From: Eledone cirrhosa
Taxonomy: Eukaryota
Reading direction: 5' to 3'
Assembly (NCBI GenBank): GCA_964016885.1
Contig: OZ024763.1
Coordinates: 16,430,001-16,494,000 of the forward strand
Length of the DNA: 64,000 nt
Part shown: piece by piece, positions 1,794 to 48,123 of the stretch
How the letters are laid out: every line of letters starts with the position of its first letter
Position numbering within the stretch: position 1 is the first letter of the stretch
Translations under genes and position numbers: made by a program
Notes under the pieces: model-generated
The model's database searches: none
What the model saw: the letters and a program-made list of their open reading frames with translations, nothing else
What the model was told of the DNA's origin: nothing

Positions 1794-2211
1794 ATCATAT
1801 ATATATATATATATATATATATATATATAGTGGTAGAACACTGGAAGGTAATATCCGTAGTGGTAGAGCACTCAGTCCAAGGGACGAGTTAGGTAGAAGT
1901 GGTTACACAACAGTTAGTTCACCATCCCGAGAACAATTGTTTCTTATCAACGATAACCACTTCTATTTATATATATATATAGTGTAACCACTTCTATATA
2001 TATATTTATATATATATATAGTGTAACCACTTCTATATATATATATATATATATATATATATATATATATATATATGCAAAAGTTCTATTTAAAATTGTT
2101 GTGATACAACAAGTAAATATTTTTATAACTGATATAAAGCACTCGACAAGTATTTGGAGTAGATATATATACGATATTAATAAATGGAAACTATATTTAT
2201 AAAACCATATT

Positions 2212-2276
2212 TATTTCATTATACATATTTCAGGGATACCAAATTAAATTATGGTATGCCTTCATCAGACAAAATA
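2212..2276 (-). ncRNA. Type I minimal hammerhead ribozyme (family A)
   Basis: Reverse complement: tattttgt CTGATGA aggcatacca..tggtatccct GAAA tatgta TA atgaaata. Confidence 0.8.
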
Positions 2277-2427
2277 CAATATATACCAGTTTTACAAATA
2301 AGCTTTGACGTACCCTATTAAAATGCAACCATTATTTTTGGAACATACTATCCGGATGGCTTATAAAAATAATGGTTGCATTTTAATAGGGTACGTCAAA
2401 GCTTATTTGTAAAACTGTTATATATTG

Positions 2428-2493
2428 TATTTTGTCTGATGAAAGGCATACCATAATTTAATTTGGTATCCCTGAAATATGTATAATGAAATA
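2428..2493 (+). ncRNA. Type I minimal hammerhead ribozyme (family A)
   Basis: CTGATGA 2436, GAAA 2474, stem I tattttgt/atgaaata; one extra A after the core. Confidence 0.75.
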
Positions 2494-2814
2494 AATATGG
2501 TTTTATAAATATAGTTTCCATTTATTAATATCGTATATATATATATATATATATATATATATAAATTAATATTTGATGAACATTTACATGTTATAGTTGC
2601 AATTGACTAATAAGATCGCTAGAGTGAAAAATCTTAATTCAACAACATAAGGTCTGCCTGTACGATCTAGAAAATAATAAATCAATACTCACAGACTCAT
2701 ATGGGCAAAAAGCCCATATACTGCTCAGAAGCGATTCCTAGAGCTGAAATGATTGTCAATGACCTCTCTGAGTCTAAACTCTAAGCTATTTATTTATATA
2801 TATATATATATATG

Positions 2815-3380
2815 TATTCTATTTTCTCCTAGTTTATTTTAATGACTATATCTGGGCGATTACGCTGTCGAAATATTCAATAAATATTCCGCTACGGCCG
2901 ATGCAAAGCGCTAGTTTTGGTTATTTGTCGGAGATTCCTTCATAGAAGCCTCATTCGTATAGCCTGGTCTATTCGATTTTTTATATAGTTAATTGGGAGA
3001 GGAAATAGTATATATTTTATCTTGTGATTCTATAGACATGTTTTATGATATATATATATATATATAAAATATGTCTTTAGAATCACTAGATATAATATAT
3101 ACCATTTCCTCTCCCAATTAGCAGAATTAAGCATATAGATACTCTATCGTAGCCACCGCGAAGGGGCTGCTTTCGGTTATTTGTCGGAGATTTCTTCATA
3201 GGAGCCTTTATTCTTATAGCTTGGTCTAATTGATTTTTTATATGGTTAATTATGCTAATTGGGAGAGGAAATGGTATATATTATATCTAGTGATTCTAAA
3301 GACATATTTTATGATATATAGCTCTGATTATTTAATTTATTAACTTTTCATTGAGCCACAACGTGACCCGTTGCAAAACA
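2815..3380. repeat. TA-embedded repeat family K: direct copies plus an inverted segment
   Basis: About 2915-3050 resembles 3172-3320; 3066-3120 is the inverse of 3256-3311. Confidence 0.65.
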
Positions 3381-3575
3381 CATATATATCTATGACTTTA
3401 TATATGTAAACCTTTATATATATATTGTTATACTTTGGGAGGGTCATGTTGCCAATAAGAAACACACGCACCAGTTGCTTTCACTTCAATTTATTATATA
3501 TTTATAAATTTACAAATTTATAAATTTATAAATTTCTGGTTGGTTGGTTCCACAACCAGATAGTTGTTTATATAT

Positions 3576-3620
3576 AGTCATAGTCCTTTCGTCACACACT
3601 CTGTGACCTCTTCAGTGACT
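3576..3620 (-). ncRNA. Type I hammerhead ribozyme (family B)
   Basis: agtca CTGAAGA g gtcaca gagtg tgtgac GAAA ggac TA tgact: 5-bp stem I and 6-bp stem II. Confidence 0.8.
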
Positions 3621-3832
3621 GGGTATTCCTTTCTTTGTTTCTGTGCCTCTCCTTTGTTCTGTCCTACGCCATTTTGTTTCTGTGTGTGTGTTGTGTGCTC
3701 AGTTTGCGCATGCGCCACATCCGGGTGTCTGTGTGTGTTTATGTTCATTTATCTATTTTTTTATTTATTTATTTATTTACATGTTATTGGTTGGTTGTTT
3801 GTTCTATGTGTGTGTGTGTTTTCATTTTGTCC

Positions 3833-44719: not shown

Positions 44720-45428
44720 CATTTACCTTACTCTATGCACATACTATTGTATTTTTGTGGTAAGGGCTTTACCCTACATAATTATCTCACATAATATTGA
44801 ATCTATGAGATTTTGATATTATTTATATTGAGAACAATACCTTAACATAAGTATGAACAGCTGGTTACAGCCTGGTTTGAACAGAAAGAGGTGAGAGAAT
44901 TCTGACCGGATCAGCTGGTTTAGATGCTAAAAGGGTTAACGTCAGTATGAGCAGCCGGTTACAGCCAGTTTAAACAGAAAGAGGTGAGAATTCTGGCCAG
45001 ATACAGCCAGTTTAAGCAGAAAGGGGTGAGAGAATTCTGGCCAGATACAGCCGGTTTAAACAGAAAGGGGTAGAGAGAATTCTAGCCAGATATGGTTGGT
45101 TTAAACTGAAAGAGGTGAGAGAATTCTGGCCAGATACAGCCGGTTTAAACAGAAAGAGGTGAGAGAATTCTAGCCAGATATGGCTGGTTTTAAACAGAAA
45201 GGGGTGAGAGAATTCTAGCCAGATACAGCCGGTTTAAACAGAAAGAGGTGAGATTTCTGGCCAGATACGGCTGGTTTAAACTGAAAGAGGTGAGAGAATT
45301 CTGGCCGGTTACAGCCAGTTTAAATAGAAAGAGGTGAGAAAAATTCTGGCCAGATACAGCCAGTTTAAAACAGAAAGAGGTGAGAGAATTCTGGCCAGAT
45401 ACGGCTGGTTTAGATGCTAAAAGGTTAA
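44720..45428. mobile_element. piggyBac-type MITE (opposite orientation) with duplicated end and ~47-bp subterminal array
   Basis: 44720-44935 is the reverse complement of the MITE ending GGG|TTAA; 44940-45428 repeats the subterminal segment about 10 times and ends GCTAAAAGG|TTAA. Confidence 0.8.
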
Positions 45429-45526
45429 ACCTTCTTGATGGTTTCAGCCATTGAAATGGTTTAACTTTTGATCGTAGGGTTTACATGGATTATGTAATAT
45501 CTGGTAACATGGAAACCAGACATTAA

Positions 45527-45976
45527 ATGATGGTGGTGTTGGCGGTGGTGATGGAGGTGGTGGTGGCAGTGGTATGGTGGTGTTGATGTTGATGATGGTG
45601 GTGGGGGGTGGTGGAGGTGGTGATGTTGATGTTGATGTTCATGTTGATGTTGATGGTGGTGGTGGTGAGGATGTTTGTGGTGGTGGTGATGGTGAAGGTG
45701 GTGGTAGTGGTGGTGATGGTAAAGATGTTGGTGATGATGGATGGTGGTGGTGGTGGTGGGTGATGACAGTCATGCTTATGATGACAGTGGTGATGATGAT
45801 GATGAGAAGGAGAATATCAGTGATGATGATGATGATTATGACAACGATAGTGATAATGGTGATAATAGTGATGATGATGATGGTGATGACGATTATATGG
45901 ATAGCGATAGTGATGACAGTGATGTTGATTGATGGTGATGGTGATGGTGATGGTGATAATGATGATGATGATGATG
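45527..45976. repeat. (GGT/GAT)n tract
   Basis: Direct reading. Confidence 0.9.
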
Positions 45977-46680
45977 TAGTATATATCCCAAAGGTAAAAT
46001 GTTCAGGTAACACACAGTTCTGCTAACGAAGTCCTTCAATCAACAAGGTGAGTCTTTCTCATTAAAGTTATAATGCGTGAAAGTATTTAGTAATGAAATG
46101 AGGTGTATGAATGGCGAGGTAGACAACACACTCTCTCTCTCTCTCTCTCATATATATCTCATATATATATTATATATATATATCTCATATATATATATAT
46201 ATATATTATATATAGTTATTATATATATTATATTTCATTTCTGAATTTGTTTAGCAAGATTCTTTATATATAACAATATATATTATATATCATATATAAT
46301 AATATATTATATATTATATTATATAATATATATCTATATATATATATTTATATATATAATATTATATATATATATATATATATATATATTATATATTATA
46401 TATATTATATTATATATATATATATATATATATTAATATATATATATATATATTATATATATATAATATATAATATATATATATATATTATATATTATAT
46501 TATATATATATATATATTATATATATTATATATTATATATATATATTATATATATATATATATATAATATATATATATTATATATATATATATTATATAT
46601 TATTATATATATATATATATAATATATATTATATATATATATAATATTATATAGATAATATAATATATAATATTATATAT

Positions 46681-46880
46681 NNNNNNNNNNNNNNNNNNNN
46701 NNNNNNNNNNNNNNNNNNNNNNNNNNNNNNNNNNNNNNNNNNNNNNNNNNNNNNNNNNNNNNNNNNNNNNNNNNNNNNNNNNNNNNNNNNNNNNNNNNNN
46801 NNNNNNNNNNNNNNNNNNNNNNNNNNNNNNNNNNNNNNNNNNNNNNNNNNNNNNNNNNNNNNNNNNNNNNNNNNNNNNNN
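46681..46880. other. Assembly gap (200 N) inside a TA tract
   Basis: Run of N. Confidence 1.
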
Positions 46881-47103
46881 ATATATATATATATATATAT
46901 ATATATATATATATATATATATATAAAATATAAAACGAAAAATCAGTGATGCATCTGGACTCAATTTATTGTGTGTTACAATTGTTTCGCCGGCAGACAG
47001 CTTGAGGCACGATCATTGTATGGATCTGTCTGATTCTGGAACTGCAGGTTTGTCGGACACTTCCAATAACTTTGGAACAAATATTTGTCCCGAGCTGTCT
47101 GCC

Positions 47104-47445
47104 GGAGGCACATGGCTTAGTGGTTAGAGCATTGGCCTTGCAATCGAAAGGGTTGTGAGTTCAATTCTCAGACCGGGTGATGTGTTGTTTCCTTGAGCAA
47201 GACACTTTATTTCACATTGCTCCAGTTTACTCAGCTGTAGAAATGAGATGATAGGGACTGGGGTCCATATCATTCCACTGTAAAGTGGTCGTGGATGTGC
47301 CACGGCAAAAAAGCACCCAGCACTCACTGTAAATGAGGTTGGTGTTAGGAAGGGCATCCAGCTGTAGAAATCAAGCCAGAATCAGTTCCCGTCCCACCCT
47401 TGCAAGCAGGGAAAAGCGGACGTAAAATGATGATGATGATGATGA
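47104..47445 (+). mobile_element. SINE family 1, full length
   Basis: Box A TGGCTTAGTGG, box B GAGTTCAATTC, CORE-like body, AGGAAGGGCATCCAGC domain, RTE tail and (TGA)n. Confidence 0.92.
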
Positions 47446-47667
47446 TATCACACTCTGCTCTGTAACAACATAGAATGCTTAACTGGCATACCATCTATGG
47501 AAGCATCCATAACTACCATTAAACACACACACATATATATATATATACATTACACGGCTCAGAGAAGCCTTTCTTTGAGCTATTTAATTGTAAGAGACTA
47601 TTTTGAGTTTCTAACTCAATATATACCTTTGATATATATATATATATATATATATATATATATATAC

Positions 47668-48123
47668 ATGGAAAGTTATATTTAAATTGTTGGGTTAACA
47701 ACGAGTAAATATTTATAACTGATATAAAAGCACTCAACAAGTATTTGGAGTATATTTATGATATTAAATAAATGGAAACTATATTTATAAAACCATATTT
47801 ATTTCGTTATATATATTTCAGGGATATCATATTAACAATATGTTATGCCATCTTCAGACAAAATACAATATAAACAGTCTTATAAATAAATAGATACGAC
47901 ATACCTTTCAATCACCTTGTATTTGGGAGGTTGATTTGGTAGACTACCAAATCAACCTCCCAAATACAAGGTGATTGAAAGGTATGTCGTATCTATTTAT
48001 AAGACTGTTTATATTGTATTTTGTCTGAAGATGGCATAACATATTGTTAATATGATATCCCTGAAATATATATAACGAAATAAATATGGTTTTATAAATA
48101 TAGTTTCCATTTATTTAATATCA
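47668..48123. mobile_element. Family A fold-back element with hammerheads at 47800-47865 (-) and 48017-48082 (+)
   Basis: About 180-bp arms around a 1-nt centre at 47943; CTGAAGA core on both arms. Confidence 0.82.

Follow-up and report, generated by a model that had tools for sequence, protein, structure and literature searches.

Hammerhead ribozymes of a Hydra-clade Penelope-like element in Eledone cirrhosa and a conserved bulged hairpin that probably positions the start of reverse transcription

A 64,000-nucleotide stretch of the Eledone cirrhosa genome (GenBank assembly GCA_964016885.1, contig OZ024763.1, positions 16,430,001 to 16,494,000 of the forward strand; hereafter the window) contains four hammerhead ribozyme motifs, here termed family A, three of them within fold-back structures. 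This locus raises the question of which element dispersed these motifs, and of what fixes the ends at which its copies stop. As judged from sequence, the four hammerheads are genuine and form part of the 3' pseudo-long terminal repeat (pLTR) of a (TA)n-targeting Penelope-like element (PLE) of the Hydra clade, and a bulged hairpin lying past each of two fixed ends probably positions the start of reverse transcription. The family A features of the window, numbered from its first letter, are as follows.

2077..2533, both strands: fold-back 1, a head-to-head 5'-truncated PLE insertion in (TA)n; the minus arm carries the tail and the plus arm stops at site 1
2428..2493, plus strand: type I hammerhead, core at 2436, predicted to be cut after 2485; an additional A, unique to this copy, follows A9
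2212..2276, minus strand: mirror hammerhead in the long arm of fold-back 1
2139..2160, minus strand: hairpin 1 (ACUC...GAGU-GC) in the tail of fold-back 1
10147..10542, both strands: fold-back 2, with the architecture of fold-back 1
10436..10501, plus strand: type I hammerhead, core at 10444, N7 is G, first stem II pair A.A on both arms
10278..10343, minus strand: mirror hammerhead in the long arm of fold-back 2
10209..10229, minus strand: hairpin 1 in the tail of fold-back 2
11261..11611, plus strand: lone 5'-truncated arm with tail, stopping at site 2 (TTTTGCA, then TA repeat)
11414..11480, plus strand: type I hammerhead, core at 11423, predicted cut after 11471
11514..11520, plus strand: site 1 (AATATCG), where short arms stop; putative first start of reverse transcription
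11521..11611, plus strand: PLE tail of ~90 nt, from site 1 to site 2
11528..11549, plus strand: hairpin 1 (ACUC-C...G-UC-GAGU-GC), 7 nt beyond site 1
15310..15465, both strands: very small tailed fold-back from a diverged subfamily, with truncation 3' of the ribozyme
47670..48123, both strands: fold-back 3, with the architecture of fold-back 1
48017..48082, plus strand: type I hammerhead, core at 48025, N7 is A, first stem II pair U.U
47800..47865, minus strand: mirror hammerhead in the long arm of fold-back 3
47730..47751, minus strand: hairpin 1 in the tail of fold-back 3

An initial annotation of the window had read the hammerhead cores as CTGATGA (2436 and 11423), CTGAGGA (10444) and CTGAAGA (48025), and had described conserved core residues, a compensated stem I, a palindromic stem III and a common end for the short arms. 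These readings hold: GAAA and A17 are kept at the four loci, stem I spans 8-9 bp with G.U or G-C at pair 2.2-1.2, stem III is a short palindrome (ATATGTAT/ATATATAT), and AATATC forms the common end of the three short arms (2527, 10536 and 48117). The further claim that only N7 varies is correct for the strict core but not for the adjoining first stem II pair, which is U.U at 48025 and A.A at 10444, in each case on both arms. Stem II does differ among loci while remaining a hairpin, as proposed, but its core-proximal pair is A-U at 11423 only. The annotation overlooked these first-pair changes, as well as an extra A in the hammerhead at 2436 that is absent from fold-back 1's own long arm. In the family A loci the fourth position of stem II is always a C.C mismatch, and 10444 and 48025 have a further A.A mismatch higher up. 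An alternative register with a bulged N9.1 was ruled out, since 10.2:11.2 covaries in the unbulged register.

The CUGANGA, GAAA and UH core elements and stems I to III of a type I hammerhead are all present. A type I descriptor applied to the window returned eight motifs, comprising the four noted above, a mirror copy on the minus strand of each fold-back (2268, 10335 and 47857) and one unrelated motif (4346), and the same descriptor yielded a mean of 0.01 and a maximum of 1 over 100 order-1 Markov sequences. The unrelated motif is a minimal hammerhead (4342-4375) with a stem III reading ACGT and without the conserved hairpin; weaker hammerhead candidates are located at 20858 and 33576. A 95-bp tandem array (40170-40840) with CTGATGA on both strands was also considered; at 40255-40826 neither the array nor a pairing scheme built on its CTGATGA copies passes the type I descriptor. 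No hammerhead was reported by Rfam among the best 150 of 524 window matches, which were TA-repeat microRNA noise, and neither a hammerhead nor anything else relevant was present among 20 matches for 12 related loci. The Rfam hammerhead models have a shorter stem II than the family A variants.

The source elements had been left without a name in the initial annotation, and their identity as a PLE is established here. In the 3.0 Gb genome containing the window, nearly all of 30 loci matching the 11423 copy stop at TTTTGCA followed by TA repeats, and many of them reach ~1.4 kb upstream into the end of a same-strand open reading frame (ORF). Eight loci, picked for long open frames out of 106 matches, contain ORFs of 750-816 codons from stop to stop, four of which share one ATG and encode 742 amino acids (aa). 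Intact ORFs have a hammerhead downstream on their own strand, and at L220 and L221 hammerheads flank the ORF on both sides. The element is laid out as leader, ATG, reverse transcriptase (RT)/GIY-YIG ORF, 3' untranslated region (UTR) of ~1.4 kb, hammerhead, site 1, hairpin 1 and site 2; in tandem copies, site 2 is followed by hairpin 2 and then by the next ATG.

The motifs of the 742-aa ORF (LD, YRDD, IIY...YVG, R, E, N) identify an RT with a C-terminal GIY-YIG-type endonuclease (EN), and a Pfam search with this ORF returned no significant family. Protein P0003 presents the Hydra-clade motifs RWR (37), DKT (118), C601-x-C603-x5-C609 and C699xxC702, and a C726-R dipeptide that is followed by H in L216, L219 and L221 and by Y in P0003; the CCHH motif is absent, with no cysteine pair between IIY and YVG. 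The RWR, DKT, CxCx5C, CxxC, CxH and YRDD motifs are conserved across 85 aligned relatives. At E<=1e-20 the 742-aa protein has 321 relatives, the named ones being from Argonauta hians (39-42%), and no relatives were found in the viral contigs searched. The same motifs, lack of CCHH and (TA)n target appear in the description of the Hydra clade (PMC8557442). Family A shares with that clade its insertion into (TA)n and a hammerhead near the 3' end, and with EN+ PLEs the pLTRs derived from partial tandems, the inverted 5'-truncated copy and the tail at one end. Assignment to the Hydra clade rests on motifs, target and architecture, with reference proteins compared by eye. Ribozyme motifs at PLE ends are a known arrangement, and the family itself is a new Hydra family of a known ribozyme kind. 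A non-LTR retrozyme was rejected as an identity for family A, the copies being dispersed, head-to-head and extending into an ORF, and not short non-coding units in head-to-tail tandem. A 23-nt anchor 3' of the ribozyme has 45,392 genome matches, and the genome holds at least 45,392 family A arms.

The family A fold-backs are ordinary head-to-head PLE insertions in which one arm carries the tail. Arms stop either at site 1 (AATATCG) or ~90 nt beyond, at site 2 (TTTTGCA or TTTCCA), and the tail is present in 36 of 100 anchored arms. Among 18 head-to-head pairs, 16 combine one tail with one short arm (binomial p=0.0007 against 0.5), the two exceptions being a pair with two short arms and a pair in which the tail runs into the next unit. 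Inverted copies and one-sided tails were already known (PMC8557442, PMC3846280), and in vitro a Poseidon PLE starts reverse transcription at two internal sites, the distance between which is the tail (PMC11167929). Genome-wide, these insertions amount to tens of thousands of near-perfect inverted repeats that, speculatively, could if transcribed feed long double-stranded RNA into RNA-editing or small-RNA pathways. At G000:C3:351148284-351149079, four leader junctions fall within 800 bp and suggest a short multimer of pLTR and leader.

A bulged hairpin (RCUC-Y...R-UH-GAGY-RC) stands ~6-8 nt downstream of each fixed end. Hairpin 1, after site 1, reads ACUC-C...G-UY-GAGU-GC, and hairpin 2, 8 nt past site 2, reads GCUC-C...G-UU-GAGC-GC and is present in tandem copies only, where ~50-55 nt separate site 2 from the ATG (33 exact genome matches to one junction pattern). 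Four other hammerhead-type families of the window present the hairpin 6-8 nt past the end of their short arms. The hairpin pattern was fixed from the window families and then applied to 77 metagenome loci (63 clusters) of related elements, where it was detected in 32 of 41 Hydra-type leader clusters (leader of >=130 nt), 21 of them with two copies. Controls returned the pattern in 4/455 ORF windows, 65/4100 shuffled leaders and 6/41 reverse strands. The two copies in leaders lie 55-79 nt apart, and hairpin 2 begins ~40-70 nt before the ATG. By eye, the hairpin can also be recognised in File S7 of PMC8557442 for Hydra-1_Ajap (twice), Hydra-2_Ajap and Hydra-2_Amil, with variants in Hydra-1_Crog and Hydra-1_Amil, and it is not clear in the sequence given there for Hydra-1_Obim. 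Three incomplete non-Hydra pieces that were encountered incidentally lack it, a weak probe of its specificity to Hydra. The L283/L282 leader (and also L284, L296 and L349) contains a third hairpin-like repeat between the hammerhead and hairpin 1, which would predict a third end point.

Base pairing was counted with an anchored script over 81 distinct hairpin instances. The first upper pair is C-G in 51, U-A in 27 and U.G in two of them, and unpaired in the remaining one (80/81 paired); the register with a 2-nt bulge pairs 138/162 cells, against 40-43/162 in other registers, and local folding predicts the stem in 63/81 instances. The hairpin also marks where copies end. Fifteen metagenome loci offered a leader and a terminal copy for comparison, and in 12 of them the two diverge 0-6 nt before a hairpin (by eye; two of the 12 carry motif variants, the other three loci could not be resolved, and 17 more loci read through or hit a contig end). 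The last shared base falls between -1 and 10 nt from hairpin 1 in 58/65 short arms of family A, 19/19 of family B and 18/28 of family C; the shared stretch includes TA microhomology, which places the junction itself 6-8 nt upstream of the hairpin. At site 2, 21 of 35 tail copies diverge within 8 nt of the hairpin.

Several observations weigh against a start-positioning role for the hairpin. Under the fixed pattern, nine of the 41 leaders lack the motif and 11 present a single copy. The lower stem, GCUC/GAGC, is nearly invariant across the clade and so provides little covariation, and the change to ACUC/GAGU in family A amounts to one event. In family C, 7/28 copies have short arms that stop at a second position, 12-13 nt upstream; at site 2, ten of the 35 tail copies part earlier from the available leaders and four could not be placed; and no hairpin 2 was found for families B and C.

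Weighing these data, we lean moderately towards a reading in which the hairpin is clade-wide and duplicated and sets an internal start of reverse transcription at a fixed position 6-8 nt upstream, yielding both the tail and the inverted-repeat insertion. The protein would bind both hairpins on RNA that is either an uncut tandem or a re-ligated circle and nick both strands of (TA)n, and the nicked strand would then prime on the short U or UA stretch just 5' of each hairpin, with copying proceeding upstream. One cDNA would arise from site 1 and one from site 2, one per target strand, and their head-to-head joining would generate a fold-back with a tail on one side; an internal start at two hairpins would hence explain why the tail is one-sided.

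The invariance of the lower stem sequence, as might be expected of a protein-binding site, is also compatible with a hairpin that acts after reverse transcription, on single-stranded cDNA or an integration intermediate, with the endonuclease recognising the hairpin and cutting a longer product back to the two fixed ends. Recognition by the D. virilis Penelope endonuclease depended on tail sequence, according to the summary in PMC11167929, and PMC8557442 ascribes the tail to EN-mediated resolution. We nonetheless regard cDNA trimming as unlikely: G.U pairs are tolerated, two internal starts of reverse transcription were measured for the Poseidon PLE (PMC11167929), and hairpin 2 is never found within a terminal arm, so that it must act from beyond the insertion end, supplied by the RNA template. 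The short distance between hairpin 2 and the ATG fits, in turn, a role for both hairpins as leader sites for protein binding or translation control (cis preference, autorepression), with the ends set solely by UA microhomology to the (TA)n primer, and the native sequence after both sites does continue with T or TATAT. Yet many further TA runs in this AT-rich region are unused as ends, some subfamilies stop at a site with 1-2 nt of homology only, and five of the window's families share the spacing of 6-8 nt, all of which makes this second explanation rather improbable. Positioning of the reverse-transcription start by the hairpins is the reading retained here.

Published work already covers PLE hammerheads, tails and inverted copies, and the proposed start-signal hairpin is likely undescribed. 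No description of it was found in the literature searched, although Lunse et al. 2016, Arkhipova 2006, Repbase notes or further parts of the papers and supplements could hold one, and the terms 'hairpin', 'stem-loop' and 'stem loop' do not occur in the main text of PMC8557442. The hairpin had no match among the Rfam results for the 12 related loci. Rfam includes the RT-1 to RT-19 motifs (those of PMC5737381).

The initial annotation further proposed that the source elements were under selection for cleavage activity. Selection is supported by the conservation of fold and core seen in genome matches, in 87 aligned copies and in stem covariation, evidence that bears on fold and core and not on cleavage itself. 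A genome search in which the eight positions after stem I were left free returned 18,339 matches (control, 0), of which 17,877 keep CTGANGA; by eye, the first 100 of those listed present T (50), G (28) or A (22) at N7 and a single change in the remaining six positions. An unbiased sample was drawn with the 23-nt anchor, taking the first 100 of its 45,392 matches, all on one contig, and dropping 11 rows for truncation or deletion and two more for a junction inside the motif, to leave 87 copies from 71 insertions. In these, N7 is T in 57, G in 13, A in 12 and C in five, and variants at C3, U4, G5, A6, G8, A9, G12, A13, A14 and A15.1 are all single-copy. None of 16 arm pairs has a core change common to both arms. 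A scripted count found a recurrent allele in 2/12 core columns and in 26/51 others (Fisher p=0.051), and the recurrence in the core, at U16.1 and H17, goes back to three separate local events in the alignment.

The annotation had named a core mutating as freely as its flanks as evidence against selection. Private alleles are indeed as frequent in the core (0.67 per column) as elsewhere (0.49), which reflects neutral decay once a copy has inserted, so that shared variants alone carry information. The covariation across genomic copies suggested as a check was found, with 10.2:11.2, 10.5:11.5, 10.6:11.6 and 2.2:1.2 changing on both sides; over 69 distinct rows, 95.9% of cells are paired and 74 change on both sides, against at most seven in slid controls, these 74 reflecting a few lineage events and not 74 independent ones. 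Position 10.4:11.4 is C.C in 84/87 copies, and the first stem II pair (10.1-11.1) is A-U in 72, U.U in six, A.C in four, G.U in three and A.A in two. Among 36 clusters of other hammerheads of the clade, this pair is G-C in 16, U.U in 13, G.U in four and A-U in three, and U.U is common there in the published Hydra hammerhead list (File S2 of PMC8557442). Independent DNA runs list variants at N7, the first pair, stems and loops, and none in the core. Taken together, these patterns support selection on source elements for the hammerhead.

Some data run counter to a functional ribozyme. The A.A first stem II pair seen at 10444 occurs in none of the 36 other clade hammerheads, and a 13-nt deletion that runs through GAAA is common to two of the dropped copies. 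With 3' sequence included, folding predictions for the monomer favour alternatives to the hammerhead (probability of stem I pairs <=0.1), and the computed stability of the stem III duplex is low, at -2.2 and -3.2 kcal/mol. No pile-up of 5' ends was seen at the cut site, with two of the 13 excluded rows stopping within ~6 nt of it by eye. The fold-backs of the window are dead and probably do not cleave, since in a transcript that spans both arms the core is predicted to base-pair with its complementary copy; the mirror arm, being on the other strand, cannot serve as dimer partner. In source elements, cutting by the hammerhead would likely be slow and rely on two pLTR copies acting as a dimer or on assistance from protein, and the cut would release or circularise the unit. 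In a Poseidon PLE, protein was needed for cleavage, and insertion in vitro could proceed without cleavage (PMC11167929).

A hammerhead that does not cleave, with core and stems kept as a structural or protein-binding element, would accommodate that dispensability for PAc (PMC11167929), as well as the A-U-only stem III, the weak predicted fold, the span of every full arm across the cut site, which implies a copied template that was uncut or re-ligated there, and the likewise high conservation of the 23-nt stretch 3' of the ribozyme. We consider it quite improbable, given that related minimal PLE hammerheads cut weakly as dimers (PMC4209133) and that the catalytic positions are all fixed across subfamilies, with N7 free. 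The 23 nt between ribozyme and site 1 (11483-11505), very conserved across subfamilies, could form a hairpin competing with stem I, a possible switch. Fixed catalytic positions with a free N7 are the pattern expected for catalysis.

The window contains further fold-back families. Family B (12562-12886) has its own type I hammerhead, a tail and a hairpin (12602-12624, minus strand); its GAAA reads AAAA on both arms and is intact in genome copies, and relatives lie near 1230-1390 and 49180-49300. Family C (15062-15270) presents a hammerhead with a U.U first pair and a stable stem III, and a hairpin (15106-15126, minus strand); elsewhere in the genome it consists of tiny, almost identical fold-backs that repeat one junction and are possibly non-autonomous, with no ORF linked to them. 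Family D (57410-57680) has stems III and I related to those of family A, with its core at 57564 and a hairpin at 57496-57525 (minus strand), and the family E fold-backs (60180-60380 and 14355-14545) are truncated inside a hammerhead-like 3' half, with a hairpin at 60256-60281 (minus strand), 8 nt past the short-arm end. The window also includes an 899-codon open frame (4550-7249) for an RT of long interspersed nuclear element (LINE) type, which we take to be RTE-like from its motifs, 3' fragments of LINE-type RT (17115-17846 and 49292-50578) and a gap of 200 N (46681-46880).

If the proposed role is correct, no cis-acting start signal of a PLE would have been mapped before this hairpin, and PLEs, as the sister group of telomerase, would have their own equivalent of a template defined by RNA structure. 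The hairpin bears on how PLEs choose where copying starts and on why they leave behind a tail and an inverted copy. As a 22-nt element with measured covariation and fixed spacing to both ends, in a genome with intact ORFs, it is directly testable. It could provide a portable start signal for a telomerase-related RT, and it offers an easy way to recognise Hydra elements, which were missed here by both Pfam and Rfam although family A alone is so abundant.

Compared with known systems, family A resembles the Hydra clade (PMC8557442) in how its domains are ordered, in having RWK-like, DKT, CxCx5C, CxxC and CxH motifs but no CCHH, and in targeting (TA)n. Also common to both are a hammerhead at the 3' end whose stem II often begins with a U.U pair, an inverted copy truncated at its 5' end, and a tail on one end. 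It is a separate family from Hydra-1_Obim, whose listed hammerhead differs, and departs from the Hydra elements published there in being longer, with a 3' UTR of ~1.4 kb and a tail of ~90 nt instead of 30-40, and in its A-U-only palindromic stem III and long stem II with a C.C mismatch. Its likeness to the minimal and dimeric PLE hammerheads of PMC4209133 encompasses location in pLTRs, a short palindromic stem III, a long stem II, opposite-strand pairs 100-700 bp apart and many subfamilies with compensatory changes. Those hammerheads conserve G10.1-C11.1, whereas family A has mostly A-U, and also U.U, G.U, A.C and A.A, and unlike them it has a stem I of 8-9 bp. With the PAc Poseidon element (PMC11167929) it shares two start sites that define the tail, the use of both target strands, an AT-rich target and uncut RNA as template. 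Non-LTR retrozymes (10.64898/2026.07.22.740005) likewise contain type I hammerheads, derived from PLE pLTRs, but they are non-coding head-to-tail tandems, whereas family A consists of dispersed truncations of a coding element.

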